Positions 1,247-15,816 of a stretch of DNA of 15,816 nt are shown here, piece by piece; the first letter of the stretch is position 1; each line of letters opens with the position of its first letter. Under the pieces are notes generated by a model that was given only the letters and a program-made list of their open reading frames with translations, had not been told where the DNA came from and did not search any database. The stretch is from a virus (taxonomy: Duplodnaviria > Heunggongvirae > Uroviricota > Caudoviricetes). Where the stretch lies: the IMG/VR virus record IMGVR_UViG_2711768076_000018, one strand, 5' to 3'. The translations under genes and the position numbers were made by a program.

Positions 1247-1285
1247 ATGGGATATATCTATAACTTATTTTCAATAACGCATTGA
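1247..1285 (+). pseudogene. orphaned gene start: 12-codon ORF (MGYIYNLFSITH) with strong SD, possibly the truncated 5' end of the gene that normally follows allC
   Basis: GGAG at 1237-1240 lies 6 nt upstream of ATG 1247, and the ORF stops after 12 codons. The spacing (10 nt after the allC stop) is typical of a coupled operon gene. From memory, E. coli allE/ylbA begins MGY, but this is not verified. Confidence 0.3.
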
Positions 1286-1329
1286 TTTAATTAAACAATA
1301 TACACTGCAAGAAGTGCCAAAAATCGCAA

Positions 1330-1353
1330 ATTAACTACACCATTAACTACACC
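1330..1353. repeat. perfect tandem direct repeat, 2 x ATTAACTACACC
   Basis: Read directly: 1330-1341 and 1342-1353 are identical 12-mers in a non-coding AT-rich stretch. Confidence 0.6.
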
Positions 1354-1462
1354 GTTCGGTGCACTGTATGAAACAACGTGGAACAAATAGACACAAGAAA
1401 TATACAGGCGGGTCATCTTTCCAGGGAGAAGCACGCCAATTCATGAGGGGCGTTAATGTCGA

Positions 1463-1629
1463 TATGGGGATCCCCATAACGGGGCTACCTGGCTTTTTTC
1501 CGGTTAAATGTCAATCAGGCTGGTGGGTTTTACATACCCTTGATCACCGTAATGATGATCCAGATCTGCACCTTTCCACCAATGGTGGAAAAGCCCACAG
1601 CAGGCCGCCCAGCCTCCCCCAATGGGGGA
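1463..1629. repeat. cluster of three GC-stem hairpins/palindromes in a non-coding region
   Basis: tATGGGGATCCCCATa (1463-1478, perfect palindrome); TTTCCACC-AAT-GGTGGAAA (1573-1591); TCCCCC-AAT-GGGGGA (1615-1629). The last two share an AAT loop. No convincing ORF covers them. Confidence 0.45.
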
Positions 1630-1884
1630 TTGTGGAAGAATCAACGGGTTAGGCCTTACCAGCAAAAAAGCACATCAACTGTAACGGAAATCGTTATGGT
1701 TGCTGGTGGGCTAAATCATCGTTATGGTGATGCAGCCATGTAGACGTTCCGGTCTCCTCAAATTGAGGTTTCCGAAAATATCAGCGGGTTAGCGATTAAA
1801 CTGACCATTAATTAAACTGCGAAAATGTCGTAGTTGTGAGGGGTGTAGCCAACCCATTTTTGGAACGTCGGGAATATCAACCAG

Positions 1885-2178
1885 TTACCGCCGCAACCGC
1901 TCCGGCTTCTTCCAGTGGTAAGTAATTTTTTCTTTCTCCTGGTACATCTCCACGCGGCGACGATATGACAACAACTCCAGAACTCTGGTGCGTATATTGC
2001 GTATATCCACGCCGTTAAGCTCGATACCGTCACGGCGCATCACCTCAGCCACCACACGCGCGTAATTTTTGGCTATCACGCTGTCCGGCTGCGTGGCCTC
2101 CTGTTTGCCTGCTTCCTGGCTGATTCCGGTAACGCGGCGGATTATTTTTAGTAGTTCGGTTTCGCTCATTCTCGTCAT
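1885..2178 (-). CDS. hypothetical protein (97 aa), last gene of packaging operon
   Basis: ATG at 2178 overlaps the TerL stop (ATGA overlap), suggesting translational coupling. No family recognised. Confidence 0.5.
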   Translation of the reverse strand: MTRMSETELLKIIRRVTGISQEAGKQEATQPDSVIAKNYARVVAEVMRRDGIELNGVDIRNIRTRVLELLSYRRRVEMYQEKEKITYHWKKPERLRR

Positions 2179-3836
2179 ACCCCATCAAACGCCGCAAGCC
2201 GCTCTTTGTGGCTGTCGCTCATATCAAATGCAAATTCCTCATGCTCTGCCTGGAATGTGCCAAACGCCATCAGCGCCGCAACGCTCGGGTCTATCTTGTT
2301 GGATGATTTTTTCTTGTTCGGCTTGATATTGGCGTTCGCGTCACTCTGCATCACAACATTACTCATTGACCAGGCCAGCACCGGATCGCCACGATGCACA
2401 ATCACCTTCCGGTTAACAAAAACTTCGAACGATTTCGCCGCCGGACTGAAACGAAGGTATGTTTGCGGGAACGGCTCCACCTCAAATCCTGCCCCCTGTA
2501 GCTGCGTCCTCAGGTGCGTGGCGTTCCATGTATCGAAGCCCACCAGCCTGATATTGAAATTCTCTGCATCCGCCATGATGTCATCACGGATACGGTCATA
2601 ATCAATGCAGTCACCCGGTGTTGTGCGTATCCAGCCCGCCTTTACCCACTGGCGATAGATGGCGCGGTTTTTATTGGCGGGGTTCTGTAGCTGAAATTCC
2701 GGCAGATAGTGACGGGAAACCAGCATAATCTTTTTACCGACCGGAAAGGCATAGCACACGCTGGAAATATCGCTGGTTGATGATAAGTCCAGCCCCGCGT
2801 AGCACTCCTGACCGTATAAATCCGCCTCCGCGAACGTTCCGGCGCACTCCGCCCATGCACCGTTACCCATCCACGGCGTAGCCCCCTGACACCAGATATT
2901 GAATCGCTTGGTGAGCATTTCCACCCACTGCGACGGAATACCCCGCGCTTTCTGGATGGTTGAGGCCAGTTTTTCACGATCGACGGAAACATCGATATTG
3001 GGATTCGCCTTTATCCACATCGCCGGATCGTCAACCTCGCTTTCATCATCCAGCTCGTAAATCAGCACGAACATGGATTCGTTCACCTCTTCACCATCCA
3101 GTATCTGGCAGCAATAGTCATAGTGTTGTTTACAGGCTGAAACAACGTTGCTCCCCGATGTGGTGATGGCAAATAACAGCCCCTCCGGACGCGCCCCCAT
3201 TCCCAGTTCAAGCGCGGAATAAACCCCGTTGTCAGGGTGCAGGTGATATTCATCCACAATGGCAAGACTCGGGTTTGTACCTTCAATGGTTGCCGCTTTT
3301 GCTGCCAGTGGCTTTAACAGGCTGTTGGTTTTCGGGTGTATCACCTTGTGTGCCTGAATATTTACCCGCTTTCGTAACGGTCGGGATAAAAGGCACATCT
3401 GACGCGCATCATCAAACACGATCCGCGCCTGATCACGACTCACGGCGGCGGTGTAAATATCCTGCTGCCCGTTTTCCATAACCAGAAACCAGTTAGCCAG
3501 GATAGCGGCGACCGTGGATTTGGCATTTTTTCGCGGCACTTCAATGAATGCGCTGGTGTATTTGCGCCGTCCGGTGGCCTTAACCTTAAAGCCCAGGATG
3601 CACGCAAAGGCGAACTGCTGCCACGGCTCCAGCTCAATGGGGCTACCGCGCATTGCGCCTTTTACGTGCGGACACACCCTGGAAAAGGCAATAAACCGCT
3701 CCACGACCTCCGGATCGAACGTGTAAAGGGGGTTTTCAAGGTCAGAAAAATACCGTTTAACGGCCTGTTTCAGTCGTTTACAGGCCGTAATTTTGCCGTT
3801 TTTTACGCCTTCTGCGTACTCATGCCAGGCGGTCAA
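2175..3836 (-). CDS. terL: terminase large subunit (HK97-like Terminase_1 family ATPase/nuclease)
   Basis: 553-aa ORF with typical large-terminase length and motifs. The ORF-track start at 3836 is a TTG codon preceded by GAGGA; no in-frame ATG lies nearby. Confidence 0.85.
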   Translation of the reverse strand: MTAWHEYAEGVKNGKITACKRLKQAVKRYFSDLENPLYTFDPEVVERFIAFSRVCPHVKGAMRGSPIELEPWQQFAFACILGFKVKATGRRKYTSAFIEVPRKNAKSTVAAILANWFLVMENGQQDIYTAAVSRDQARIVFDDARQMCLLSRPLRKRVNIQAHKVIHPKTNSLLKPLAAKAATIEGTNPSLAIVDEYHLHPDNGVYSALELGMGARPEGLLFAITTSGSNVVSACKQHYDYCCQILDGEEVNESMFVLIYELDDESEVDDPAMWIKANPNIDVSVDREKLASTIQKARGIPSQWVEMLTKRFNIWCQGATPWMGNGAWAECAGTFAEADLYGQECYAGLDLSSTSDISSVCYAFPVGKKIMLVSRHYLPEFQLQNPANKNRAIYRQWVKAGWIRTTPGDCIDYDRIRDDIMADAENFNIRLVGFDTWNATHLRTQLQGAGFEVEPFPQTYLRFSPAAKSFEVFVNRKVIVHRGDPVLAWSMSNVVMQSDANANIKPNKKKSSNKIDPSVAALMAFGTFQAEHEEFAFDMSDSHKERLAAFDGV

Positions 3837-4176
3837 GCTCGTCCTCTTCCTCTGTTTCCGGTGGATTTCTGCGGCGACTTACCGGGTCAAAACCCAGCAA
3901 AGAAGCCATTTTGATCATTATTCTTTCAGCGTCAGCCTTTGCGCTCAGGGCGGGGTTTCTGCTCTCGCTGCCCTGACTGTTAACAATGCTGAACCCGCGC
4001 GTGGCAAGGTCTTCGACGGCTTTGCGGTATATGGAGTAGTTAACGCAATACAGCTCCAGATTGCTCCAGTCGGCGGGAGTAAGGTCTTCCCGTCCGGAAA
4101 GCTGGCGCGATTTTTCCTTCCACTGCCTGACCGCGATTTCATCCAGGTAAGCGGGGGCTTTTGGTGGTCTTGCCAT
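3820..4176 (-). CDS. terS: terminase small subunit (P27-like family)
   Basis: The C-terminal 119 aa (MARPPKAPAYLDEIAVRQW ...) look like a small terminase. The 47 codons upstream to the ORF-track start (4317) have odd composition and rare codons, so ATG 4176 is preferred. Confidence 0.65.
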   Translation of the reverse strand: MARPPKAPAYLDEIAVRQWKEKSRQLSGREDLTPADWSNLELYCVNYSIYRKAVEDLATRGFSIVNSQGSESRNPALSAKADAERIMIKMASLLGFDPVSRRRNPPETEEEDELDRLA

Positions 4177-4464
4177 GTTCTTTTTTCGCCCAATTATTTT
4201 CAAAAAAATTCCCGTGCACAAAAATTTGAGGAGGCGGTCGGTGTCCGGCAGGGACGGTTTCGTCCTGAAAACCACCCCCACCCCCTCTGACGGCCTCACC
4301 AGCGATTGCGAAAACATTCCATGACCTCGCGGTCACGGTCGGTTAATTGCTTCGCTGTGGTGCGTTCTGTGCGCCCTGTCCTGTTGGCTTTGTGCCCTGT
4401 CTCCTGTGTCTTCCATAAGTCACGCTGCCTTATCAGTCCACGTATCAGCCTGGTTTGCTCCTGT
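4177..4464. other. HNH-TerS intergenic region, candidate cos/packaging site
   Basis: About 290 bp gap containing hairpin GGACGgtttCGTCC (4251-4264) and C-tract CCACCCCCACCCCCTC (about 4272-4287). In HK97-type cos phages the cos site lies between the HNH gene and terS. Confidence 0.3.
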
Positions 4465-4475
4465 TCAGTCATCAT
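4296..4475 (-). CDS. possible small basic protein (about 59 aa) overlapping the HNH 3' end
   Basis: In-frame ATGs at 4481/4475/4472 overlap the last HNH codons (MMTEQEQTRLIRGLIRQRDLWK ...). The SD is weak, so this is speculative. Confidence 0.25.
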   Translation of the reverse strand: MMTEQEQTRLIRGLIRQRDLWKTQETGHKANRTGRTERTTAKQLTDRDREVMECFRNRW

Positions 4476-4905
4476 CGCCATACATCCAGTCGTTACGGTG
4501 TGCTGCCCGTTCTTCCTGTTCGCGATACATGCCCGCCTTACGGTTCGCTTTCGTGGCTGGATCTTCCCGTGTCGTCTTACGGTTGTGGCACGTCTGGCAC
4601 AATGCCTGGTGGTTCCACTCAGGCCAGAAGAGAACATCACCGCCGCCATTGATGGGGATGATGTGATCCACCACAAGAGCTGGCGTATAAATCCCCTTAG
4701 CCAGACAACGCACGCATAACGGGTTTTTGCTCAGGTACAGGGCGCGGTATTTGTCCCACTGTCGGGAATACCCGCGCGCGCGGCGGTGTCCCCGTCTGGC
4801 ATCCTCTGCACGCCATACAGCCCGTCTGTGCTCTTCACACTTGCCGGACTTCACGCGCTTATTACAGCCCGGCTCAGTGCATCGCCTTAATGGTTGCCAC
4901 GGCAT
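4465..4905 (-). CDS. HNH endonuclease (terminase-associated)
   Basis: 146 aa with Cys-rich N-terminus and an HNH motif (DHIIP ... NHQALCQTCHNRKT). ATG 4905 overlaps the stop of the upstream gene (ATGA). Confidence 0.85.
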   Translation of the reverse strand: MPWQPLRRCTEPGCNKRVKSGKCEEHRRAVWRAEDARRGHRRARGYSRQWDKYRALYLSKNPLCVRCLAKGIYTPALVVDHIIPINGGGDVLFWPEWNHQALCQTCHNRKTTREDPATKANRKAGMYREQEERAAHRNDWMYGDDD

Positions 4906-5207
4906 CAGTACACCCCCACATCACGATAAACCGACCAGAGCGCAGAAATAGCCATAGGCAGTTCAGACTGCTCCACTGGTGAAACTGCTTCCCTGTTCTC
5001 GTACAGGAAAGCGATGTACATCAGGCAACCAACACGCATTGCCGGGGTAAATTCCAGCCCGTCTTCAAAACGTTTCCCGATATGCTTCTGGCAGGCTTCC
5101 AGCGCCGCATCGGTATACATTTTCAGAAGTTCGCCTTCACCGGATAAATCATCATCAAGTCGAAGATGTGCCCTGACTTCATCAGGTGTAATTCTGGCTT
5201 CACTCAT
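4905..5207 (-). CDS. head-tail connector / DNA-packaging protein, gp6-like
   Basis: About 100 aa from ATG 5207 (MSEARITPDEV ...) with a strong SD (AGGGAG) just after the portal stop. The ORF-track start at 5270 is GTG and less likely. Confidence 0.65.
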   Translation of the reverse strand: MSEARITPDEVRAHLRLDDDLSGEGELLKMYTDAALEACQKHIGKRFEDGLEFTPAMRVGCLMYIAFLYENREAVSPVEQSELPMAISALWSVYRDVGVY

Positions 5208-6414
5208 CTTTTCTCCCTTTAATTTCCACAGTCTGTTTCCATGCCTGGCTGAACTCATCACCACCTTCACGCGGCGGCATACCCTCGCGTTCGCGAGCTT
5301 CGTTCGGATTCATGATCCCGCTCTTAATCCCTTTCTCATACGTGGCATAACGTTCGGTGGGTGTGGCGCGCAGTAAATCGGCTGAATCAAACTCAACCAG
5401 ATAACGGGTACCAGGTACGGGAGAAGTCACCAGCAAAGCGGCCTTGATTTGCTGTTCGAAGTTCGCCAGCCACGGGCGCATTGTCATGGTCAGAAATGCG
5501 CGGCTCGCCTCACTGAAATTGCTGTAGGTGCTGTTGCTGTATTCCTGAAGAAAAATCGGCGACACGTTGAACATCCTGGCGATGTCTTCAATGGAGAAGC
5601 GACGGGAGGCCAGCCATTCCGCATCCTGGTTACTCATCCCCAGCTGCCTGTAATCCATGCCCCCTTCAAGGATTGGCGTTTTTCCGGCATTTTTCGCCCC
5701 CTTGTAGCGTTCCAGTGCGTCTAATGCCTGTTTACCTTTCACGCCGTCCAGCCATTCACCTGACGTGATAATCCCTGCCGCCATCATGCCATCTTTCATA
5801 ATGCTGGCTCCGTGACGCTGTTGAGCAAGGCCAAGCCCCAGCGCCTCACGGCAAATCGTGACGGGGGAACGCCCCAGAAAGCCATCATCCGAGGCATAGC
5901 GGAGATGCAGAACTTCTTCCTGTAAATACGTGCGCACCGTTCCTGTACAGGGTTCGGTGATGGTATAGCGGTATTTGTGTGTGCCTGTGCGTTCCGGTAC
6001 AACACACCCCGGCGCATAAGGATGAAGTGATTTTGGCTGCCCGTCCCGCCCCCACTCAATAACCGCATAGGCGTTACCGTTCAGCAGGCAGTGACGCATC
6101 ATTGTGCGTTTAAACTGGTAAGGTGTCAGGCACGAATTAGGCTGCTCATTCAGCAGAATATCTACCGGGTGACTGTCCAGCCATTCCCGCGCCTCTCTGC
6201 CCTTATCATTGCGTACCAGATACAGGTAACACGGCATCGTGGCCACCGCCTCAGCGATGACAGAAACCGCGTTCATCACAGCAGGCAATGATTCAGCCGT
6301 CCCGGCAGAAACATATTCTCCGGATCCGGTATTTGGTACACCAGACAACGCCAGAAAATCATCAATGGACAGGTTACGCAGATCGCTTTTTTTACGACTA
6401 AAAGGCCACCACAT
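5200..6414 (-). CDS. portal protein (HK97 family)
   Basis: About 404 aa from ATG 6414 (MWWPFSRKK ...), 1 nt after the protease stop and preceded by a GGGGG SD. The ORF-track start at 6504 is TTG. Size and composition fit a portal. Confidence 0.85.
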   Translation of the reverse strand: MWWPFSRKKSDLRNLSIDDFLALSGVPNTGSGEYVSAGTAESLPAVMNAVSVIAEAVATMPCYLYLVRNDKGREAREWLDSHPVDILLNEQPNSCLTPYQFKRTMMRHCLLNGNAYAVIEWGRDGQPKSLHPYAPGCVVPERTGTHKYRYTITEPCTGTVRTYLQEEVLHLRYASDDGFLGRSPVTICREALGLGLAQQRHGASIMKDGMMAAGIITSGEWLDGVKGKQALDALERYKGAKNAGKTPILEGGMDYRQLGMSNQDAEWLASRRFSIEDIARMFNVSPIFLQEYSNSTYSNFSEASRAFLTMTMRPWLANFEQQIKAALLVTSPVPGTRYLVEFDSADLLRATPTERYATYEKGIKSGIMNPNEAREREGMPPREGGDEFSQAWKQTVEIKGRKDE

Positions 6415-6415
6415 A

Positions 6416-6976
6416 TCACACCCCCGCCAGTTCAGCCCAGCGATGACGATTATTTCCTGCCGGGCGTAATTCAGGGTACTGTGCAAACAACGAACGGTGG
6501 GCAATCTCCACGCCGGATTCGGGATAAGCAGGCATCGATGTTATCGTGATTTCACGGAGTTCTGCTGCGGTTACAGTACGCAGATACGGTTTTTGCGCGA
6601 TATTCCACTCCTCGCATAATGCGCGAAAGCCAAAGCTCATTCCTGTAATATCGCCACGTTCCACCAGCGTAAGCACATCTTTTCCAAGCTGGGTATTTGG
6701 CGGTGTCAGTTCAAAACGTAGCCCGGTGTTATCCTCAGTCAGTACCAGTGAGCCGGATTTGGTACGCCCCAGCAGTTGGGTATAGTCATGCTCATACAGA
6801 CAGCGCACATCATTACCTGCCGCCAGATAGTCAGCAAAAGCCCCCGGCGTGAACTGTTCGCGAAACTCGTCCCAGATAATTTCTGAAAGGCTGTTCCAGC
6901 GAACGGCATAACCCACCAGTTTTTTATCGCTGGCGGTCAGTTCAGATGTACGGATTTCAAAATCGGTGTTTTTCAT
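6416..6976 (-). CDS. prohead maturation protease (HK97 family)
   Basis: 186 aa from ATG 6976 (MKNTDFEIRTSEL ...) with GGAG SD. Conserved GMSFGF-type motif region. The ORF-track N-terminal extension to 7201 overlaps the capsid gene and is unlikely. Confidence 0.85.
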   Translation of the reverse strand: MKNTDFEIRTSELTASDKKLVGYAVRWNSLSEIIWDEFREQFTPGAFADYLAAGNDVRCLYEHDYTQLLGRTKSGSLVLTEDNTGLRFELTPPNTQLGKDVLTLVERGDITGMSFGFRALCEEWNIAQKPYLRTVTAAELREITITSMPAYPESGVEIAHRSLFAQYPELRPAGNNRHRWAELAGV

Positions 6977-6996
6977 CGGTGTACTCCATAAAGCTG

Positions 6997-7020
6997 AAAA
7001 AGGAGGCCGAAGCCCCCTTT
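6997..7020 (-). terminator. intrinsic terminator/attenuator immediately after the capsid gene
   Basis: Minus-strand RNA reads AAAGGGGGC-UUCG-GCCUCCUUUUU: a GC stem with a UUCG tetraloop and a U5 tract, 6 nt downstream of the capsid stop and upstream of the protease SD. Confidence 0.6.
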
Positions 7021-7025
7021 GCTCA

Positions 7026-8171
7026 TTACTTGCCAGCCTGAATTTCCAGAATCTTGATGGCGTTCGAATCCACCACACCACCGCCCAGATATTTCTGGGT
7101 ATAGATGTTAATGAATCCAGGCTCGCTGAAATCCGGACGGGTACGCGTACCGGTTTTATGGTCAACGATGAAATAACCGCGCTTAAAGTCACCGACTGCA
7201 ATCACACCGTCCGGCATAAATTCCAGATATTCAACCGGAAGCCCCAGCAGAGAATCAGGATCACCAGCCTGTAAACGATCGCGCCAGATGTAATCACCAG
7301 TGGCATTTTTCAGTTTTTGTGCGGAGGCGGCTGTATTTGAGTTCATCACCCATACAGCTTTTTTGCGGTACTTATTGCGCAGCGTAAATTTCAGGTCAAT
7401 CAGCATATCGGCGCTGAGACTGCCAGTCACTTTTTTCGTCTGGAGCGTACCGAAAGGACGGGTTTTGTCATTATCCGTAGTGCGCGGGAAAGTCAGGAAA
7501 CCTTTGGCTTTTTTCTCGCCATCACCGGAAACCAGATCCGTTTCTTCGGTATCAACGAAAGTGTCGCCAATTTCAGAAGATAACCAGCCCATAATATCGA
7601 CTTCGGAAAAATCGATAATTTCCTGAGTGGTTTTCGGGTAAGCGTAGATCGGATACAGGCGGATACTGACTTCATTCAGTTTTGGGGTTGCCGTCTGGTT
7701 ACGTGCCGCACCTTCTTCGCCGTGTCCCACGACCGCCCCCCCGGCAGAAACCAGTTGCTTAAATTCATTACTGTGAATGGTTTTAACAGTACAGATTTTA
7801 CGCATCACCGACTCATCAGAAAGCTGACGCATAATTTCTCTGTTCAGTTCCGGGATAACCGTATAACCACCATCAGCCGGAACACTGCCGGACAGGTTGC
7901 GGGTTTCCCCGGTCAGAATGTAAGAGCGTAGCTCATTTTTGGTGATTTTATCTTCGACGGGAACACCAGGCTGGTTACGTTCTTCATCAGCCACAGACTC
8001 GAGGCGGGAAATTTCTGTGTCGAGGGAATCGGCTTTTGCACGCAGTTCATCAAACTGTTTGCCTTCGTCATCGGTTAGACTGCGGTTTTCACTGTCGGCT
8101 TTTTCCAGCAGGGATCGCATCTGGTTTTTCAGGGCGGTTTTTTGCTGGCGGAGTTCGATTAATTTCTTCAT
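7026..8171 (-). CDS. major capsid protein (HK97 fold) with N-terminal coiled-coil delta domain
   Basis: 381 aa, ATG at 8171. The N-terminal 60 aa are coiled-coil-like (MKKLIELRQQKTALKNQ ...), followed by a capsid-shell domain with HK97-like C-terminal motifs. Confidence 0.9.
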   Translation of the reverse strand: MKKLIELRQQKTALKNQMRSLLEKADSENRSLTDDEGKQFDELRAKADSLDTEISRLESVADEERNQPGVPVEDKITKNELRSYILTGETRNLSGSVPADGGYTVIPELNREIMRQLSDESVMRKICTVKTIHSNEFKQLVSAGGAVVGHGEEGAARNQTATPKLNEVSIRLYPIYAYPKTTQEIIDFSEVDIMGWLSSEIGDTFVDTEETDLVSGDGEKKAKGFLTFPRTTDNDKTRPFGTLQTKKVTGSLSADMLIDLKFTLRNKYRKKAVWVMNSNTAASAQKLKNATGDYIWRDRLQAGDPDSLLGLPVEYLEFMPDGVIAVGDFKRGYFIVDHKTGTRTRPDFSEPGFINIYTQKYLGGGVVDSNAIKILEIQAGK

Positions 8172-8354
8172 GAAGGTTTTCTCGCATTGGTTAAGATTCA
8201 GGACGTGAAACCAACACGGGGGGAGCGCCGCCCGACACTCTCGGCATCTCGCAGATCAACCCGGCATCGCGCAGGGGGTCAGGCGGCATTGTGGCGGCTC
8301 ACGTCTGAGTGCCACACGCCAACATATACATAAAAATCAGTATGTAAACATCAA

Positions 8355-8392: not shown

Positions 8393-8407
8393 TAATTTAC
8401 AAAACCT

Positions 8408-8440: not shown

Positions 8441-8444
8441 CGCT

Positions 8445-8693
8445 TTATTGTTTCACTGGCTCCCGCATTCTGCGTCTTATTTTCCACAAATATTCGATCA
8501 TCGCTTCCACCTGCTCACGGTTGGTTGCGAAAATTTCCCCGGTCAGTGAGCTACGCAGAAAATCATGATGATCCACAAAAAATAACGCATCGGAAGAAAG
8601 CAACCGACGATATTTTTTTGCTGTCGTGGTTTCCAGATCATCAAAACCATGAAGCTTTTTATGTTGCTGAACTTCTTCAAATGTCACTGGCAT
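8445..8693 (-). CDS. hypothetical protein (82 aa)
   Basis: ATG at 8693 overlaps the end of the ProQ/FinO gene by 10 nt. No family recognised. Confidence 0.5.
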   Translation of the reverse strand: MPVTFEEVQQHKKLHGFDDLETTTAKKYRRLLSSDALFFVDHHDFLRSSLTGEIFATNREQVEAMIEYLWKIRRRMREPVKQ

Positions 8694-9214
8694 GTATCCC
8701 CCTTTGCTGCCCGGCGCTGGCGCTTGTGCTTCTCATTCAGCACCATCAGCCGTGTTTCTGCCTCCTGCTGTTCCTGTGGTGTCACTTCCCCACATGGCTG
8801 GCCTTTCAGGTCGTAACGTGCGCCACCAGCTATCAGGGCGCGGTAATAGCGCGGAGACTGCGCATAGGATGCCAGCGTCGCACGTAATACCCCCGGCCCG
8901 AATGCCAGCCCCCTGACGGCGATATCCTGCATCAGGTCGTCGAATATCCCCACCTTAAGCGGCTTCGGTGCTTTATGGCTGAATAAGTCAGGCCACATCT
9001 CAGTGAGGCGGTTAACGCGTCGGCGGTTTTTGCGCTGCCTTTTGGTCATATGCTGCCACGGTGTCGCCCCTGTGGGCTTCTGCTGTGCGTTCTGATTGCC
9101 GGGTATCACTTTATGCGCCGATGTGGTTTTATCCTGCTCTTGCGCCGCCTGCGTCGTTTTCTGCGGCGTGCCGTAAATGCCTTTCGGCTTCCGGTTAATG
9201 GTCAGCGTTGTCAT
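8684..9214 (-). CDS. ProQ/FinO-domain RNA-binding protein
   Basis: 176 aa. The segment PLKVGIFDDLMQDI ... LRATLASYAQSPRYYRALIAGGARYDLKGQPCGEVTPQEQ matches the ProQ N-terminal FinO-like domain from memory (PLKIGIFQDL ... [22 protein letters not shown]). Basic low-complexity N-terminus. ATG 9214 with GGGGAAGG SD. Confidence 0.75.
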   Translation of the reverse strand: MTTLTINRKPKGIYGTPQKTTQAAQEQDKTTSAHKVIPGNQNAQQKPTGATPWQHMTKRQRKNRRRVNRLTEMWPDLFSHKAPKPLKVGIFDDLMQDIAVRGLAFGPGVLRATLASYAQSPRYYRALIAGGARYDLKGQPCGEVTPQEQQEAETRLMVLNEKHKRQRRAAKGDTCQ

Positions 9215-9250
9215 GCCTTCCCCTGTAATTACTCTGTTCGCTGTTGTGAA

Positions 9251-9676
9251 TTAAAACGGTATGTTATCCCCGTACGGGTCATCGTGCTGGCTTGTCTGTT
9301 GTTTTGCCCTGTTCAGTGCGTCAGTGGCCTGGCCCTGTTGACCTTTTTTGCCGCCCGGTCGCGCCGTTCGCGCACTGATTACGCTGTCTGCAATAACCTG
9401 CCAGCCCTGCCGCGTTTCCCCGTTCTGGCCTGTCCACTGGCTCACCTGCATGTTACCCGCCACGCTCACCAGTTCGCCTTTGTGGTGTTTTGCCAGTGCG
9501 TCGGCCTGTCTGCCAAACGCCAGGACAGATAACCACATCGTCGCCGTTCCGTCATCTGCCTGGCTGCACGGCAGGGGAACCGCCATACTCGCCATCGCCA
9601 TTTGTGTCCCTTTGCTGGTGGTCTTTAACTGCGGGTCAGCCACCAGCCGCCCGTAAGCCGCTATCTGTGCTGTCAT
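9251..9676 (-). CDS. ssb: single-stranded DNA-binding protein
   Basis: 141 aa with an OB-fold N-terminus (YGRLVADPQLKTTSKG ...), a Gly/Gln-rich linker and an acidic tip DDPYGDNIPF (compare DDDIPF in E. coli SSB). ATG 9676 overlaps the upstream stop. Confidence 0.85.
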   Translation of the reverse strand: MTAQIAAYGRLVADPQLKTTSKGTQMAMASMAVPLPCSQADDGTATMWLSVLAFGRQADALAKHHKGELVSVAGNMQVSQWTGQNGETRQGWQVIADSVISARTARPGGKKGQQGQATDALNRAKQQTSQHDDPYGDNIPF

Positions 9677-9918
9677 GCTGTCTGCTCTCCGGTTTTAACG
9701 TTGATGGTTGTCACCTGTTCCGCTTCGGCAATCTCCCGTTCTGTCAGCGTGGCAAAGTTTGCCGCTGCCGTGGTCATGAATGCGCTTACCAGTTCGGGAT
9801 GTGCTTTTGCGTACCCTTCTCCCGCGTTGCGGTCGATGATTTTTATCGCCACCCTCAGCCAGTGTTCTGTCAAATCAAGGGCGTGAGATTGTGGTTTTTT
9901 TGCGTGCTTCGTTGTCAC
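9673..9918 (-). CDS. hypothetical protein (81 aa)
   Basis: GTG start at 9918 with GAGGT SD; stop overlaps the ssb start. First gene downstream of the ori. Confidence 0.45.
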   Translation of the reverse strand: MTTKHAKKPQSHALDLTEHWLRVAIKIIDRNAGEGYAKAHPELVSAFMTTAAANFATLTEREIAEAEQVTTINVKTGEQTA

Positions 9919-9963
9919 AGGCTTTACCTCACAGCAATAAAATAAAATTTTTGCATTTTAACC

Positions 9964-10192
9964 CTTCACCTGTTCACCTTTTGAGATTTTCCCTTTTTAT
10001 TCATAATGTTAAGGGGTGAACAGTTTCACAAAAACTATTCACCAACTGTTCACCACTGTTCACCCTTAAAGCTCAATAAATAATCAAAAAGGTGAACAGT
10101 GAATAGTTTGGTGAACAGTTCACAAATAACTGTTCACCCTATAATGTACTGATATAAAAGATATTTATAACAGGGTGAACAGTGGTGAACAG
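9964..10192. repeat. replication origin: iteron array of 9-bp GGTGAACAG / CTGTTCACC repeats flanking AT-rich DNA
   Basis: Perfect copies of GGTGAACAG at 10015, 10091, 10110, 10174 and 10184. Perfect inverse copies CTGTTCACC at 9970, 10046, 10056 and 10130. Degenerate copies at 10035 and 10099. AT-rich stretch at 10140-10170. The array abuts the primase stop at 10206. Confidence 0.75.
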
Positions 10193-10205
10193 TTATTCCA
10201 TAAGT

Positions 10206-12020
10206 TTAATTTTTGCTGTCGTCATTTGTGACCGATGCACATGATGGCATCCAGTCTTCTGAATCCTCTGTCAGTGTCACATTTGAACGCAAACCGTGCT
10301 TCGTTTTCCGTTTTATATACTCCCTGCCATATTCCGCCATTGCCCCCGGCATATCTTTACCGAAGCGCGTCAGTGTTACAGGTTTACCGAATCCGTGTGC
10401 CCTCATATATGCCAGATAGGCGTGATAAAGATACCTGCGCGGACTGAACGGAATAATTTCGGCATTACCCACTAACAGACCATCACACATTACCGACGAC
10501 ATGAGATAGCCACAGAAGTCCACCAGCGAATCGCCCTCGCGTTTTATCACCAGAGCTTCTTCTGATTTCTGCTGCTCATACAGCAGGCGTTTAGCTTCGT
10601 CCTGGTCAGAAAAACGAGTAAGCAGATGGCGAATCACAACCGCCAGCTCTCCTTCTATTTTTTCTGCCAGCATGGGGTCGCGCTCGTTCTCCGGTACAAC
10701 CTCCGAAAAATTGAATATCACCCGACGACGTGAGATCCCCCCGCTGCGGTCACTGAATGACATGGCGTTATTGTTCACCGCCAGCACGACCGCCTGAATG
10801 CGTGTTGAGTAGGGGGCTTTATGCTTCGGGTCGATTGCCACCTTGTCACCGCCTGTAATAGCCTTAATTCCTGCGCCATCACCAGCGTAGCGGGTCATAT
10901 CCGGCATGATAATCAGCGAAAAGCCAACCACTAACGCGCGTTCCCTTGCATCTTCCAGCGCCTTCATGCTTGCCGATACTGTGTTGGCCTTACCCGCCAG
11001 CATGGTGCAAATCTCCGCCATCACGCTTTTACCACTTCCCCCTGGACCTGTTACCTCAATGAATAACTGCCAGTCGTACCGGTTCGCCAGCACCATGAAT
11101 AATGCAGCCAGCACGCGATCCGTCTTGCGGTCATTCTCTGCCACCGAGCAGCGTAACCACTTCCAGAAATTCGGCGCATGTGTTGCCAGCGTTTCCCCCT
11201 CTGCTGGTGGGCTGAAAGGTAATTCACTGGCAATTAACAACCAGTCGTTTTTGTTATGCTCCCGAAAATTACCTGTTCTGGTATCAAATACCCCGTTACT
11301 GAATCCAATCAGGTTACGGGCTGTATTCCCCATTACAGGCAAACTTAACTTCATGGTATCGACCGCCGATTTAATGGCGTTCTGCGAATAGCTGATCTCC
11401 GCATCAATGAAAATCTGCGCCATAGCACGCTGTAACTCTTTATCCTGAATCGGCTCCCATACAACGCCGTTGTAATGGTGAACAGTGTCAGAGTCGGCAT
11501 GAATCGCCAGTTCACCGCCATAATGTGCCAGGAGAACTTCGCCGCGCTGGCTTGCTCCCATCTGGTTAAGCGCCAGTGGTGCGGCGCTGTCTTCTGTTTT
11601 TTTCTTAACAGGAAGCTGAATCACCAGACCATCAGAAAGATTCTGGCGCTCACGGGCCAGATATTCGCGCCAGTTCTGCACCTCCTGGCCGTGCATACCC
11701 TCAGGATAAAAATTTGCATCCTGTACGCCTGCCGCCGCCAGCTTCTGACCAATCGCCTTTATCATTACTGGCGCAAGATATCCGGCCCTGAATATGCGCA
11801 CGGATTTTCTGCCTTCCGGCACAATTTGCAGCTTATCCAGTTCGGATAACTGCTGCTCCCCAAGCCACACAGGAGGCTCATTATCTCCGGCCATACGCGC
11901 GTCATGTTCCTGCCATTGTTTTGCGTGTGACCAGGCATCACTACCCGCAAAAATAATGACTTCTGTTTCTTTGTGTTTTATGCCGCGTGACTGCTGTTTT
12001 ACGTTCGGTGCCAGTTTCAT
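10206..12020 (-). CDS. primase/helicase replication initiator (P4-alpha-like, Walker A NTPase C-terminal domain)
   Basis: 604 aa with Walker A GPGGSGKS in the C-terminal half, of a size typical for satellite or plasmid primase-helicases. ATG 12020 overlaps the upstream stop (ATGA). Confidence 0.85.
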   Translation of the reverse strand: MKLAPNVKQQSRGIKHKETEVIIFAGSDAWSHAKQWQEHDARMAGDNEPPVWLGEQQLSELDKLQIVPEGRKSVRIFRAGYLAPVMIKAIGQKLAAAGVQDANFYPEGMHGQEVQNWREYLARERQNLSDGLVIQLPVKKKTEDSAAPLALNQMGASQRGEVLLAHYGGELAIHADSDTVHHYNGVVWEPIQDKELQRAMAQIFIDAEISYSQNAIKSAVDTMKLSLPVMGNTARNLIGFSNGVFDTRTGNFREHNKNDWLLIASELPFSPPAEGETLATHAPNFWKWLRCSVAENDRKTDRVLAALFMVLANRYDWQLFIEVTGPGGSGKSVMAEICTMLAGKANTVSASMKALEDARERALVVGFSLIIMPDMTRYAGDGAGIKAITGGDKVAIDPKHKAPYSTRIQAVVLAVNNNAMSFSDRSGGISRRRVIFNFSEVVPENERDPMLAEKIEGELAVVIRHLLTRFSDQDEAKRLLYEQQKSEEALVIKREGDSLVDFCGYLMSSVMCDGLLVGNAEIIPFSPRRYLYHAYLAYMRAHGFGKPVTLTRFGKDMPGAMAEYGREYIKRKTKHGLRSNVTLTEDSEDWMPSCASVTNDDSKN

Positions 12021-12316
12021 TTTTTACCCCTGAATCCGTTAATCATGGTTTTCAGCTTCTGGATGTTTGCCCGTGCCCTGGCGTTGCTGGTGGACACGTT
12101 ATGCGGCGCGGTCTGTACCAGAGAAAAATCACGCCGGAACTGATAAACAGGCATCACGCAATCATATTCGTAACCTTCACGGCGGTAGGTTACGCGCCGT
12201 TCTTCCACGCCCTTAATCATTACCGTGCCGCCGTACTGGTCGCGGTAAATATCGCCGCGCGTAAATTTAGGGTGAGTGTTGCCACTGGCAGTTAAGCCAG
12301 AATATTTAAGTTTCAT
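12017..12316 (-). CDS. hypothetical protein (99 aa)
   Basis: ATG 12316; tightly packed in the operon immediately upstream of the primase. Confidence 0.5.
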   Translation of the reverse strand: MKLKYSGLTASGNTHPKFTRGDIYRDQYGGTVMIKGVEERRVTYRREGYEYDCVMPVYQFRRDFSLVQTAPHNVSTSNARARANIQKLKTMINGFRGKK

Positions 12317-12321
12317 TATTT

Positions 12322-12555
12322 TTATTCTCCGGTGTGCTGTTCTTTATATCTGTCGTGCAATAGATCTATTTCTTGCAGTTCCATTATTACAGGCTCAAGA
12401 AGCGTTATTAATGCCGTGGCAATTCTTGATTTTTGTTTGTCGCGTTCATTGTCGCCAAGTGTTTCAAGCCATATGCGCAATATTTCCAGCATGTTTTCAC
12501 TGTGAGAAAGTGCAAGAAATGCGCGGTCTATTGTTTCGTGGTAAATATCACGCAT
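12322..12555 (-). CDS. hypothetical protein (77 aa)
   Basis: ATG 12555 overlaps the upstream stop by 8 nt. Confidence 0.5.
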   Translation of the reverse strand: MRDIYHETIDRAFLALSHSENMLEILRIWLETLGDNERDKQKSRIATALITLLEPVIMELQEIDLLHDRYKEQHTGE

Positions 12556-13012
12556 GGCTTACATCCTCAGGAAATTTTCTTCTATAACGCGCCTCTGCCA
12601 CATATTCCGCATAATCGGCGGCGATATTCAGTACATCAAGCCCCGTTGATTTATATTCTCTCGTGGAAAGTAAGAAAAAAGCCGCTCTAATAAGCTCTGG
12701 CATTGACGAAAGCGCATCAGCCGCATCATCAGGAACGCCGGAAAATTCCTGTTTCAGGGAATTAAAACGATCATCACGCATAACCCCCCCATTTTCACAA
12801 TCAGCAATCAGGATGGCTTTAGCCTCATTCAGCGCCATATCCGCACTAAGTTGCATAACAGCCAGTGAGTGAGGAACGAAAGCCCCGGCATATTCTGTTT
12901 CGCTGGTGGCGCGCTTATGCGCCTTGTCTGCGATAACAGAAATATCAATCAGCGCGTGCATCAGCGTTTTGATGGCTTCGGCGGCTGCGTCCGGACGGGT
13001 GTTATTGCACAT
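12548..13012 (-). CDS. hypothetical protein (154 aa)
   Basis: ATG 13012 overlaps the upstream stop by 11 nt. Confidence 0.5.
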   Translation of the reverse strand: MCNNTRPDAAAEAIKTLMHALIDISVIADKAHKRATSETEYAGAFVPHSLAVMQLSADMALNEAKAILIADCENGGVMRDDRFNSLKQEFSGVPDDAADALSSMPELIRAAFFLLSTREYKSTGLDVLNIAADYAEYVAEARYRRKFPEDVSHA

Positions 13013-13208
13013 GGCGTACCCCCTGACGAATACGGGCAGCGAATACCATCACGCAGCCATCAGGAGATTGCTGACGCGCTTCCTGTTCGCTGGTGGCCTC
13101 AATGGTAATCACGCGCGGTTGTGCCGTGCTCAGGGCGATAAAACGCCAGATGTATTTATTCAGGTTGTACGAGTCCCGCCCTTGCGGGTGTCTGGTATAA
13201 TTTCTCAT
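13002..13208 (-). CDS. hypothetical small protein (68 aa), first gene of the leftward replication operon
   Basis: ATG 13208 with GAGG SD. This is the in-frame C-terminal part of a 374-aa ORF-track call that is itself implausible. Confidence 0.4.
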   Translation of the reverse strand: MRNYTRHPQGRDSYNLNKYIWRFIALSTAQPRVITIEATSEQEARQQSPDGCVMVFAARIRQGVRHVQ

Positions 13209-13407
13209 AGCTGCCTCGATACTTCTGCTATCGTTGGTGGTTAGAAGCCCGTTGGTGTTGGTAGCACCTGCGGGCTTTGTCTTTTCATCGATTACCTTAA
13301 TAAAGGTGTCAGCCACTATACTAGTGACAGGTGTCAGCCACGTCAATAGTGTTTTTCTATTTTCTTGTGTGTATACTGTCAGCCACCTAATAACAAGGAA
13401 ATCAGAT
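13209..13407. promoter_or_regulatory. divergent promoter/operator region with three TGTCAGCCAC repeats
   Basis: TGTCAGCCAC at 13307-13316, 13332-13341 and 13377-13386. The third copy overlaps a TATACT -10-like hexamer upstream of the plus-strand gene at 13408. On the minus strand the repeats read GTGGCTGACA and contain -35-like TGACA. Confidence 0.45.
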
Positions 13408-13587
13408 ATGGCAACGAAAGCAGTTAATGGAAAATCCAAAAAACTTGAGGCACGAGTACCCCATGCAATAGCTGACGCTGTAGAAAATTTAAAGGAAGAA
13501 GGCGAAAGCACTGGGCAATTTATCGTTTCGGCGCTTGAAGGTGAGATCAAACGCCGCCAGCGCCGAAAGGCCAAAGAGCAGGAATAA
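13408..13587 (+). CDS. small ribbon-helix-helix-like DNA-binding protein (59 aa), candidate regulator
   Basis: ATG 13408 with AAGGAA SD. The predicted strand-helix-helix pattern (KLEARVPHAIADAVENLKEEGESTGQFIVSALEGEI) and basic C-tail fit an RHH protein. It is one of only two plus-strand genes in the element and diverges from the replication operon. Confidence 0.55.
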   Translation: MATKAVNGKSKKLEARVPHAIADAVENLKEEGESTGQFIVSALEGEIKRRQRRKAKEQE

Positions 13588-13644
13588 CCATCACCAGCGC
13601 CGTGGTGTAAGGTATTACGGCGCATTGCTATGCAGGACAACACA

Positions 13645-13818
13645 ATGACCGATAAAGAATTGACCAAAACATTATCACCGACACGGAAAAGACGACGCAG
13701 AAAGATAGAGCATGAATCAGAAAGATTCGCGCCATGTGCTTTTGCCCTTGAGCAATTCCTTAAAGAGTACAGGGAAAAGCGCTCATTGCAGGTATGGCAA
13801 CGAACTGAACCAGACTGA
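13645..13818 (+). CDS. hypothetical small basic protein (57 aa)
   Basis: ATG 13645 preceded by AGGA at 7-nt spacing. Followed by a plus-strand terminator at 13885-13913. Confidence 0.35.
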   Translation: MTDKELTKTLSPTRKRRRRKIEHESERFAPCAFALEQFLKEYREKRSLQVWQRTEPD

Positions 13819-13884
13819 TTGCATTGCCCACCAGCCGCAAATGTGGCATTGTTGGTGATGCTTTTGTTTTCCCTTGTTCCCACT

Positions 13885-13913
13885 GGCGACCCTTTTGCGG
13901 TCGCCTTTGTTTT
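13885..13913 (+). terminator. intrinsic terminator for the plus-strand small-gene unit
   Basis: GGCGACC-cttttgc-GGTCGCC hairpin followed by TTTGTTTTGCTT. Confidence 0.65.
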
Positions 13914-13951
13914 GCTTGTTATCCGGCAATAGTGGCGCTTCACCACACGGT

Positions 13952-14038
13952 TGATATAATTCCCCTGCACTGATCCATTTTTTTCGCAGCAGGTTAATTG
14001 TTCAGAAAGGCGGTTCCTTATCGGGGCCGCTTTTTTTA
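13952..14038 (+). ncRNA. candidate small RNA (about 70 nt) from an extended -10 promoter to an intrinsic terminator
   Basis: TGaTATAAT at 13952-13960 is a consensus -10 with extended TG motif; the -35 is poor. Terminator hairpin GCGGTTCC-ttatc-GGGGCCGC plus T7 lies at 14010-14037. No ORF with an RBS lies between. Confidence 0.3.
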
Positions 14039-14150
14039 TGCCTGAAAATACCCGATAACATGGCTTTTTAGTTTCACCAGGACGAACGAAGCCCCGCCCC
14101 TGTTCGGGCGTATATCCAGTATTCATGGTTAGATCTCTGTGTTAGTGGAT

Positions 14151-14175
14151 GGCTGGCGGCGGTGCGCCGCCAGCC
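14151..14175 (-). other. perfect 11-bp GC-rich hairpin 3 nt downstream of the alpA stop
   Basis: GGCTGGCGGCG-gtg-CGCCGCCAGCC with no U-tract on either strand. Possibly a transcript-stabilising or Rho-related structure. Confidence 0.4.
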
Positions 14176-14178
14176 TGA

Positions 14179-14367
14179 TTAGTGAACTGCCTCGCGGCTG
14201 TCCTTCCATGCCAGAACTTCGGATAAAGACCAGCCAACGGAACGACCGCCGAGTTTACGCCGTGATGGGAATTGTCCGGTCTTCTCCAGGCGATACCGAC
14301 ATGAGCGGCTCAGGCCTGTAAGTTGCTGACATTCTTTTTCACGTATAAAGCGATCTGTGCTTAACAC
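14179..14367 (-). CDS. alpA: AlpA-family (Xis-like winged-helix) transcriptional regulator
   Basis: 62 aa with the AlpA signature: a helix-turn-helix around TGLSRS and a downstream GWSLSEV motif (compare VGW in CP4-57 AlpA). GTG start at 14367 with a strong AAAGGGGGAA SD. Sits immediately downstream of int. Confidence 0.8.
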   Translation of the reverse strand: MLSTDRFIREKECQQLTGLSRSCRYRLEKTGQFPSRRKLGGRSVGWSLSEVLAWKDSREAVH

Positions 14368-14410
14368 AATTCCCCCTTTGTTGTTTCTTAAAGAGTCATT
14401 GGGTGGATTA

Positions 14411-14458
14411 TTGGGTTGGGTTGTGTCTGATTGTGTCAGGATGATTCAGAGTTGGCAA
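14411..14458 (-). promoter_or_regulatory. candidate alpA promoter overlapped by 10-bp-phased TTGNGT repeats
   Basis: Minus-strand TTGCCA (plus 14453-14458), a 17-bp spacer, then CACAAT (plus 14430-14435). Plus-strand repeats TTGGGTTGGG / TTGTGTCTGA / TTGTGTCAGG at 14411-14440 have exact 10-bp phase. Confidence 0.3.
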
Positions 14459-14530
14459 ATGTTGAGGCCGTATGGTTTACAGAAAGAGGAACAATCAGGA
14501 TAAAATCATTTAAATTCATGTTAATACAAA

Positions 14531-14560
14531 GGCATAAAATCTCGTTTTATGCCTTTTTTC
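14531..14560 (-). terminator. intrinsic terminator between int and alpA (bidirectional-capable)
   Basis: GGCATAAAA-tctcg-TTTTATGCC hairpin, with TTTTTTC following on the plus strand and TTTGTATT on the minus strand. Confidence 0.6.
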
Positions 14561-14650
14561 TTACGCGTTAAAGCGTTATTCGCTAATGTATAAAAAACCA
14601 GTCACACAAATAAAATCAGTCACTTATAAACCTGTGTACTTTTTCGCCTC

Positions 14651-14700
14651 TTGTTCGTGGTTGTTCCACGTTGTTTCACATTGTTCGCCGTTGTATCTGT
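14651..14700 (+). promoter_or_regulatory. five tandem 10-bp-phased TTGTTC-type repeats just 3' of int
   Basis: TTGTTCGTGG TTGTTCCACG TTGTTTCACA TTGTTCGCCG TTGTATCTGT. The first 18 nt are identical to the array upstream of the capsid operon (8374-8391, opposite strand). Confidence 0.5.
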
Positions 14701-14742
14701 GTGCTTATCCAGTATGCGCATACTGAAAAAACACGAAAAAAA

Positions 14743-15816
14743 TTATTTTCTTCTGGCTGCTGGTAGTGCGGTTACGTTTTCATGTGCTCCCGCCAGTATC
14801 CCTAACCGCTCCGTCCACATATCCAGCGCATTGCGTTTCGCATCCAGATAACGGGAGTGATTATAGACTCGTTGCATCCCTGGCATCTGGTGTCCTGTAA
14901 GCTGCTCCACGACATGCGGATCAACGCCTAAATCGTTCAGCATGGTTGTAAAGGTGCGCCGGATGTCATGCAGTGACCAGTGGGGGTGATTAAGCCTCCT
15001 GTGCGCTAATCTTCCATACTGCGATACGCTGGCCTCCTGTTTCACTTCCCCCAGCAATAAGCCCGTGTGCCTGTTCTGCTCCACCAGCTGCGTGATGAAC
15101 GGCAGTATTGCTTCCGGTATAGGCCGGAATATGGCTACCTTCGTTTTGCTGTGCTCCTTCGGAACGGTCCAGAGCATTTCGGTAAAATCCCACTCGCCGA
15201 TCTCCGATAACCTAAGTTCGACCGTCCGGCATCCGAACACAATCAGGAGGCGGATTAGCGCGATGTAGTAGGGGGAAAATATTTTTTTGTCCAGTGCCTG
15301 CAATAATTCGCCCAGCTCTTTATTGCTTAAGACACGTTCGCTTATATCCGGTTTTTTCCCAACGTCCGCTACGTTCAGATCATCGAGAACGTTACTGATT
15401 GCATAGCGCCGCCTCCGGCAGTACTTAAGCGCCTGTTTGCATGTCTGTAGCACGAATCCGGCAGTAACAGGTGTTCGCTTTGCCACCTGGTCAAAGCAGG
15501 CCAGCCAGTGCCGTAGCTCGCATTTATCCAGCGGCATAGCACCAATTTTGGTGATTATGTTTTTATTGATCCGGCTTTTCAGTGATTCGTAATCTGTGCG
15601 CTTTTCCTTTGCGTACGACTCAAGCCAATAGGTGAGCGCATCGCCAACCGTTACAGGCTTTAACGCTTCCTGCATGGTGTAATTCAGTTCATAGCGTGGA
15701 TTTTTCCCCTCAGCCAGCCATGCGCGACACTGGGCGGCTTTTTCCCTGGCTGCTTTCAGACTCAGATCGGGATAATTTCCCAGCTTAACGCGTTCAGGTT
15801 GTGTCCCTCTTCCCAT
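14743..15816 (-). CDS. int: tyrosine integrase (P4/CP4-57 type), 5'-partial
   Basis: 357 aa visible, with the C-terminal catalytic region (HDIRRTF ... YNHSRY). The region LGNYPDLSLKAAREKAAQCRAWLAEGKNP aligns, from memory, to around residues 55-85 of P4-type integrases, so about 45 N-terminal codons probably lie beyond the window. Confidence 0.85.
   Translation of the reverse strand: MGRGTQPERVKLGNYPDLSLKAAREKAAQCRAWLAEGKNPRYELNYTMQEALKPVTVGDALTYWLESYAKEKRTDYESLKSRINKNIITKIGAMPLDKCELRHWLACFDQVAKRTPVTAGFVLQTCKQALKYCRRRRYAISNVLDDLNVADVGKKPDISERVLSNKELGELLQALDKKIFSPYYIALIRLLIVFGCRTVELRLSEIGEWDFTEMLWTVPKEHSKTKVAIFRPIPEAILPFITQLVEQNRHTGLLLGEVKQEASVSQYGRLAHRRLNHPHWSLHDIRRTFTTMLNDLGVDPHVVEQLTGHQMPGMQRVYNHSRYLDAKRNALDMWTERLGILAGAHENVTALPAARRK

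Follow-up and report, generated by a model that had tools for sequence, protein, structure and literature searches.

A probable capsid-forming phage-inducible chromosomal island of the EcCIEDL933 lineage inserted at the start of allE

Phage-inducible chromosomal islands that form capsids (cf-PICIs) constitute an abundant, recently recognised means by which genes pass between enterobacterial species. Described in 2022-23, the family has been reported in 13% of Enterobacteriaceae genomes (PMC10085698). Its experimentally characterised prototype is EcCIEDL933, which is located between roxA and phoQ in E. coli O157:H7 EDL933 and whose behaviour is taken here from two reports (10.1101/2022.09.08.507074 and 10.1101/2025.02.11.637232). 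Helper- and alpA-dependent induction, the formation of small capsids of their own that hold island DNA only, and tail-dependent transfer have been shown only for EcCIEDL933, EcCIGN02175 and KpCIDSM30104. The element studied here is contained in IMG/VR virus record IMGVR_UViG_2711768076_000018, a stretch of 15,816 nucleotides referred to as the window, and takes up positions 1256-15816. It is very probably an integrated, apparently intact E. coli cf-PICI of the EcCIEDL933 lineage, 14.9 kb in size, with its own head and packaging genes and no tail. Given the role of this family in gene transfer, correct annotation matters, and without the cf-PICI call the element would be labelled as a scatter of 'phage' genes. 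An earlier sequence-only reading had proposed a cf-PICI-like architecture. This is borne out by collinearity with EcCIEDL933 over the whole length and by the best structural match of the capsid protein, but the novelty attached to the element was overstated, as it adds one member to a common family that had already been described.

Gene content and comparison with EcCIEDL933

The genes of the element are compact, tightly packed and nearly all encoded on the minus strand. In the order of transcription they are int, alpA, an Icd-like gene and three small genes of no assigned function, a DUF4222 gene, the primase-helicase gene, a further small unknown, the SSB gene and a ProQ/FinO gene. These are followed by a small unknown, the capsid, protease, portal, connector and HNH genes, another small unknown, terS, terL and a small conserved gene. 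The named genes match Pfam profiles over essentially their full length, with concordant matches from PHROGs and NCBIfam, and show no sign of truncation or degradation apart from the integrase gene, which is cut by the window edge. All the components listed in the sequence-only reading (integrase, AlpA, primase-helicase, iteron origin, SSB, head and packaging genes) were recovered by Pfam matches and by the iteron count. Pfam and PHROG scans of the window ORFs and the gaps between them, the largest of which without an assigned gene is 629 bp, gave zero matches to tail, tape-measure, baseplate, holin or lysin/endolysin families, in agreement with the absence of such genes that had been read from the sequence. 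No tail or lysis genes occur inside the whole att-bounded copy in E. coli strain AST19 either.

The window element is collinear with EcCIEDL933 from end to end, with the gene order shared from int through terL to the hypothetical gene that comes last. Identity to the EcCIEDL933 proteins is highest for TerL (93%), Int (92%), AlpA (89%), TerS (88%) and the HNH protein (84%), followed by the portal and DUF4222 proteins (80% each), the capsid (74%), SSB (69%), the protease (62%) and the connector (56%). The two elements are of similar size (14.9 kb against 15.4-15.5 kb), neither contains tail or lysis genes, and both have the HK97-type packaging set of HNH, TerS and TerL. There are also differences. 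The window element lacks the PF05521 gene that EcCIEDL933 has between the portal and connector genes, its replicase is of the D5/DUF5906 type instead of the DUF927 type, a ProQ/FinO gene replaces the PerC gene, and it is integrated at the start of allE rather than at phoQ/roxA.

The head and packaging genes all lie on the minus strand. The major capsid protein (7026..8171) has the HK97 fold (PF05065, E 8e-61), and its best match among solved structures is PDB 9GYI (E 4e-184), the T=4 capsid of EcCIEDL933 (He et al. 2025). Downstream of it are the prohead serine protease of the S78 type (6416..6976; PF04586, E 5e-45), the portal protein (5200..6414; PF04860, E 2e-91, aligned over profile positions 1-321 of 321) and the gp6-like head-tail connector, or adaptor Ad1 (4905..5207; PF05135; PHROG 40, E 2e-28). 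The packaging proteins are an HNH endonuclease (4465..4905; PF01844, E 9e-10), which is a packaging accessory of HK97-type cos systems, a small terminase TerS of the P27/Terminase_4 type (3820..4176; PF05119, E 2e-23) and the large terminase TerL (2175..3836; PF03354 and PF20441, E 2e-52). Small conserved genes accompany this module on the same strand. One is situated upstream of the capsid gene (8445..8693; phrog_1957, E 4e-36) and is 40% identical to its EcCIEDL933 counterpart. Another (4296..4481; phrog_3173, E 9e-28) is a homologue of EcCIEDL933 gene '1792' with 78% identity, and the last gene of the packaging operon (1885..2178; phrog_1561, E 3e-49) is 73% identical to the gene that follows terL in EcCIEDL933.

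Between the homologue of gene '1792' and terS lies a candidate cos region (4177..4295, minus strand) with a G-rich motif at 4262-4285. The deposited linear ends of an induced 16.5-kb element, vB_KppS-Ant, fall between genes homologous to those around 4177-4295, and its right end aligns to the G-rich motif, which is also conserved in EcCIEDL933. These ends are suggestive only, and they indicate that the cos site is probably within 4177-4295.

The gene content was also compared with published criteria. The cfPICI model of SatelliteFinder has 11 core components, of which 9-10 suffice for Types B and C, and forbids tail and holin genes (de Sousa et al. 2023, PMC10085698). The window element has 10 of the 11, the missing one being the second head-tail gene, and none of the tail and holin components that the model forbids. 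By tallying components in the sequence, the element is thus assigned to the "Type B" class of cfPICI. Type B accounted for 459 of the 969 elements in that work, whose authors remark that many members of the class are functional (PMC10085698). Apart from the second head-tail gene, the features by which a cf-PICI is recognised are present: an integrase at one end, AlpA, a primase-replicase with an adjacent origin, and the element's own capsid, protease, portal, gp6-like connector, HNH, TerS and TerL, with no tail, holin or lysis genes.

More distant systems share parts of this arrangement. The phages HK97, HK106 and HK022 and the SfI/SfII/ST64B/phiP27 group have an HK97-fold capsid, S78 protease, portal and gp6-type connector, and HNH-dependent cos packaging is likewise common to HK97-like phages and the window element. 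The similarity of the connectors is distant, however, and identity to those of true phages reaches 34-39% at most. HK97-like temperate phages are about 40 kb in size with another gene order, whereas the window element has about 15 kb and lacks tail, lysis and lysogeny-switch modules. P4 and classical E. coli PICIs of the EcCICFT073 type share with it a P4-family integrase, AlpA, an Icd-like gene and the P4-alpha-like C terminus of the primase, but they rely on helper capsid proteins whereas the window element encodes its own. EcCIGN02175 and KpCIDSM30104 belong to the same family, and the same behaviour is predicted for the window element, namely tail-less, DNA-filled capsids that join free phage tails.

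Two observations were made on the capsid protein itself. An N-terminal maturation motif has been reported as SxGxxAD in EcCIEDL933 and HK97; in the window element this motif (residues ~93-100) reads SGSVPAD, so that Ser occupies the Gly position. Relative to the EcCIEDL933 capsid, 3 residues are also deleted next to its 'connector loop' region.

Insertion in allE and the ends of the element

The boundaries of the element were determined by comparing the window with the empty site of K-12 and with a copy in AST19 (L001) that shares 99.4% identity with the entire window. In the window, allC takes up the first 1236 bases. The empty K-12 site reads TAA-GGAGTCATAA-ATGGGATAT-TTAAATAAC, and in the window the DNA of the element begins at 1256, straight after ATGGGATAT, which comprises the allE start codon and two further codons. 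The left end is therefore exact and confirms the start coordinate of 1256 given in the sequence-only reading. At the far end in AST19 the element stops with ...GATAAAA and is followed by GGGATAT-TTAAATAAC. The attL core GGGATAT (1249..1255) forms the last 7 nt of ATGGGATAT, and the same 7 nt are found at the right junction in AST19 (L001 24162-24168). Insertion took place behind the third allE codon, and a 7-bp GGGATAT repeat flanks the element. The sequence-only reading placed it next to allC; allC does adjoin it, but the insertion is actually inside the 5' end of allE.

The right end of the element, with the attR arm and core, is situated about 340 nt past the window edge. The integrase (14743..15816, minus strand; PF00589, PF13356 and PF22022) was aligned to the full-length AST19 protein of 409 residues and comprises residues 53-409 in the window, so that the first 52 residues are missing, as the truncation noted earlier had implied, and the ATG at 15816 is the internal Met53. 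In AST19, int is directly followed by allE with no further phage genes, and the element is a discrete island between allC and allE, delimited by its GGGATAT repeats and measuring 14,913 bp with one core copy counted in. This is inside the cf-PICI size range of ~10-18 kb. Contiguous tail, lysis and immunity-switch modules, by which an HK97-like prophage would be recognised, occur neither in the window nor in the full AST19 element. Since no tail or lysis genes are found to the right of int in AST19 and the head genes are intact, the cf-PICI interpretation is supported.

Insertion after the third codon separates allE from its start codon, its ribosome-binding site and the link to the allDC promoter. 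The element documents integration inside the allE start, a site at which it splits the allDCE allantoin operon. The allantoin pathway of the host is probably impaired by the insertion. At the left junction (window 1237-1292) a stub ORF of 12 codons remains after insertion behind ATGGGATAT. At the right junction (L001 24150-24210) the position of the allE start codon is AAG, with an in-frame TAA upstream, and PGAP re-calls allE 14 codons shorter with a CTG start. No report of a PICI at allC/ylbA was found in the searchable main texts of the literature, a search that lay outside supplementary att-site tables.

Excision would occur by a crossover between the GGGATAT copies and is predicted to restore ATGGGATATTTA of allE. 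Close to the left end is a 26-bp repeat, AATTAACTACACCATTAACTACACCG, that consists of two tandem 12-mers (1329..1354, plus strand). An exact copy, oriented alike, lies within the element close to its right end (L001 24009-24034), and the repeat is also found in the sister element L002. It is followed by TGAAACAA-like motifs at 1368-1386, and TGAAACA-type motifs occur near both ends. The 26-bp repeat and the TGAAACA-type motifs are putative arm-type sites for the integrase or accessory proteins. The left arm (1256-1884) is a non-coding region of 629 bp that contains a pair of 44-nt repeats with 70% identity (1609-1652 and 1749-1792) and the short palindromes TCCACCAATGGTGGA at 1575 and TCCCCCAATGGGGGA at 1615. 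Parts of it are 85-93% conserved in EcCIEDL933.

The one-gene neck and rival explanations

In EcCIEDL933 two genes lie from the portal to the HNH gene, a PF05521 head-completion protein (E 7e-23) and the gp6-like connector. In the window element the connector is the sole neck gene. An 8-nt overlap between the connector start and the portal stop leaves no room for a gene between them, and neither a PF05521 search of the window ORFs nor a tblastn search of the window with the EcCIEDL933 protein gave a match. The sequence-only reading had called the head and packaging set complete; every gene that it named is present, but the head-completion gene of the prototype is absent. EcCIGN02175 and KpCIDSM30104, compared by their descriptions, carry an adaptor and a connector where the window element has the connector only.

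Of 5426 complete E. coli genomes, 145 have the one-gene portal-connector junction and roughly 380 the two-gene form. Among 6 relatives sampled in other taxa, those of Citrobacter portucalensis, Erwinia psidii and Enterobacter roggenkampii are without the PF05521 gene. It is present in an element of Serratia liquefaciens and in two further ones that lie on assembly or metagenome contigs. As closely similar connectors occur with and without this gene, it has been gained or lost repeatedly. The length of the connector was considered as a predictor of the loss and rejected, because a connector of 100 residues occurs with the gene (P0013) and one of 99 residues without it (P0020).

The lineage to which the window element belongs is found, in near-identical copies, at no fewer than five chromosomal sites: at least allC/allE, phoQ/roxA, smrA/abgR, clpS/cspD and fis/yhdJ, with 8 complete genomes at allC/allE among the matches listed. 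At all five sites the copies are directly flanked by core genes and never contain tail genes, and the portal and connector proteins are often identical. Between the window and the clpS/cspD copy, synonymous changes greatly exceed non-synonymous ones, and dN/dS is 0.08 for TerL, 0.09 for HNH, 0.13 for the connector, 0.05 for the portal and 0.08 for the protease. The packaging genes are under purifying selection (dN/dS 0.05-0.13).

In the cf-PICIs studied so far, the choice of phage tails that can be joined is set jointly by the 'adaptor and connector' genes, both of which are carried by all three elements of that study (He et al. 2025). From the reported identity levels we infer that the 'adaptor' of that work is the PF05521 protein. 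We tentatively propose, with a little less than even confidence, that a large conserved subset of cf-PICIs, the window element included, has dispensed with its own head-completion protein and, if mobile, either borrows that of the helper or has a connector on which tails dock directly. Of the two, supply of the missing neck protein by the helper is the plausible, favoured route over direct docking of the tail. Lambda heads that contain gpW but no gpFII remain filled, and it is possible to complete them in vitro. This behaviour makes plausible a DNA-stable head with a connector only, completed later by a borrowed protein and a tail.

Several points weigh against an intact and mobile cf-PICI. 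The head-completion gene is absent, and in EcCIEDL933 the mutation of each gene of the packaging module abolished transfer, with the exception of hypothetical gene 1792. Some copies in other genomes have annotated frameshifts or deletions, so the lineage decays in places. The replicase diverges from that of the prototype past residue 145. Induction, small capsids, cos ends and transfer are predicted for the window element by homology, and no helper phage was identified for it. Part of this evidence would fit a crippled cf-PICI that, having lost head completion, fills its heads, cannot join tails, and persists vertically with occasional generalised transduction; the PF05521 difference to EcCIEDL933, the mutant phenotypes, the joint role of adaptor and connector in tail compatibility and the decayed copies all point that way. 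Such an element would hardly be expected to retain packaging genes with dN/dS values of 0.05-0.13, nor would a dead junction be expected in 145 E. coli genomes and at five or more sites with identical portal and connector proteins, or again in Citrobacter, Erwinia and Enterobacter relatives. We regard a crippled element as unlikely.

The possibility that degraded head genes of a larger prophage are present had also been raised, and it is not supported, as the head genes are full-length and under purifying selection. All the structural genes have phage homologues and the fold is HK97-like, which would be in keeping with an HK97-like prophage that has had its tail and lysis genes deleted. But clean att junctions surround a 14.9-kb unit, the unit recurs at several sites and always without tails, and the order capsid-protease-portal-connector-HNH-terS-terL after a P4/PICI-type int-alpA-primase region is that of cf-PICIs and not of HK97-like phages. 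Moreover, a megablast search of 50,697 phage records yielded no close relative; the best match, a satellite-sized 16.5-kb 'induced prophage', covers no more than ~35% of the element at ~76% identity. The absence of close phage relatives is the pattern that Alqurainy et al. describe for the cf-PICI family. A prophage remnant is therefore very improbable. Still less credible, to the point of being negligible, is the reading of the element as a P4-like satellite or classical PICI, with helper capsids remodelled and none built of its own. Such a satellite would account for the module of int, alpA, Icd-like gene and P4-type primase that is shared with the PICI and P4 families, but the capsid, protease, portal, connector and TerL encoded here are forbidden or absent in the PICI and P4 models, and Pfam and PHROG searches of the window proteins gave no match of the sid, psu, delta or rpp kind.

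If the element is a functional cf-PICI, its working can be outlined from EcCIEDL933. An induced helper prophage would turn on alpA, and AlpA would drive Int-mediated excision at GGGATAT and expression of the long minus-strand operon. The primase-helicase and SSB would replicate the circle from the iterons. Capsid, protease and portal would build T=4 heads of the HK97 fold, ~47 nm in size and fitting ~15 kb, and TerS, TerL and HNH would cut at cos, probably between the small hypothetical gene and terS, to fill them with island DNA only. The gp6-like connector would then cap and seal the portal, and attachment of a free tail made by a phage would complete the particle. As there is no PF05521 protein, the helper would have to supply the piece between connector and tail along with the tail, or the tail would dock directly on the connector.

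The one-gene-neck form is widespread and is represented by none of the three experimental cf-PICI models. If such elements are mobile and borrow the neck, 'tail piracy' would extend to the neck, and the range of usable tails would be tied to the neck of the helper. Either neck reading, if true, would change the view of tail specificity and of the stability of free tail-less capsids for about one quarter of the EcCIEDL933-lineage elements in E. coli.

Replication module, early region and relatives

The primase-helicase (10206..12020, minus strand) has 604 residues with D5_N, DUF5906 and Pox_D5 domains and a P4-alpha-like C terminus. It is a mosaic. Its first 145 residues share 88% identity with EcCIEDL933's DUF927-type replicase (L004 34038-36170), and past residue 145 there follows an unrelated helicase-type body of the D5_N/DUF5906/Pox_D5 kind. 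Directly 3' of the gene is a candidate replication origin (9970..10192) in an AT-rich region, with a GC content of 0.42 in the 10001-10500 block. It contains 10 copies of GGTGAACAG in both orientations within 223 bp, nine exact and one with a single mismatch. In the whole window 16 matches to GGTGAACAG were observed against ~3.3 expected, and none of 200 shuffles reached 16. The placement and form of the iterons fit the expectation for a PICI-type origin, and the origin presumably travels together with the D5-type replicase body.

The remaining genes of this module are also on the minus strand. They encode a conserved hypothetical protein (9673..9918; phrog_1231, E 2e-49), the single-stranded DNA-binding protein SSB (9251..9676; PF00436, E 4e-16) and an accessory protein with a ProQ/FinO domain (8684..9214; PF04352, E 1e-23). 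This RNA-chaperone-like gene occupies the slot of a PerC-family regulator in EcCIEDL933 and in the clpS/cspD copy. A cognate RNA for it was not found by an Rfam scan of the whole window, which recognised no known RNA family and gave only sub-threshold matches to miRNA models on the inverted-repeat origin. A PADLOC scan of the unassigned proteins gave zero matches to defence systems, so the element has no recognisable immune cargo.

In the early region, the AlpA regulator (14179..14367; PF05930, E 3e-18) lies downstream of int on the minus strand. The minus strand also encodes the Icd-like protein (13002..13208; NF033153, E 1e-19; PHROG 6196), two hypothetical proteins (12548..13012, phrog_2512, E 5e-88; 12322..12555, phrog_2196, E 8e-42) and a DUF4222 protein (12017..12316; PF13973, E 2e-24). 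The element has two plus-strand genes, for a small protein of the YlcI/YnfO family (13408..13587; NF041551, E 4e-17) and for a small hypothetical protein (13630..13818; phrog_21027, E 2e-15) that is 98% identical to EcCIEDL933 DNA on the same relative strand. Both family-matched genes are overlapped by a minus-strand ORF of 374 residues (13002-14126), and the GC skew turns positive there. The ORF itself, whose C terminus is Icd-like, has no family match; in its 5' part it shares 61% identity with the EcCIEDL933 gene that lies downstream of alpA. RefSeq annotations of the sister copies conflict in the icd-alpA interval, with plus-strand genes in one and a minus-strand pseudogene in others. The coding between icd and alpA (13209-14178) is ambiguous.

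The sister element at phoQ/roxA (L002) was used for the comparison of int and core site. It is 98.6% identical overall, with an integrase of 91% identity and different core flanks: its 7-bp core is TATGTCC instead of GGGATAT, and the 25-30 bp adjoining the core are divergent. The two integrases (L001 22758-23987 and L002 17466-18695) differ at 38 of 409 residues, 29 of which fall within residues 51-200, the arm-proximal and core-binding domains. These differences suggest that integration specificity switched recently. At fis/yhdJ, a decayed relative (L010, NZ_CP192200.1, 9039-18271) has kept TerL, TerS, HNH, connector and portal, but its capsid gene and replication module are gone, as is half of the protease gene.

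An IMG/VR scan with the portal-connector junction returned 24 contigs, nearly all of them prophage predictions from isolate genomes, and these 24 contigs give no evidence for packaged particles. On one metagenome contig (P0003) the connector is 96% identical, but the gene calls are too fragmented for the contig to be used. 'Escherichia phage vB_KppS-Ant' (L008, LR881103.1), deposited as a 16.5-kb induced prophage, has the cf-PICI gene order. A gene of 766 residues after its terL (2036-4333) is annotated as 'tail length tape measure protein', which is probably a misleading name for an accessory gene.

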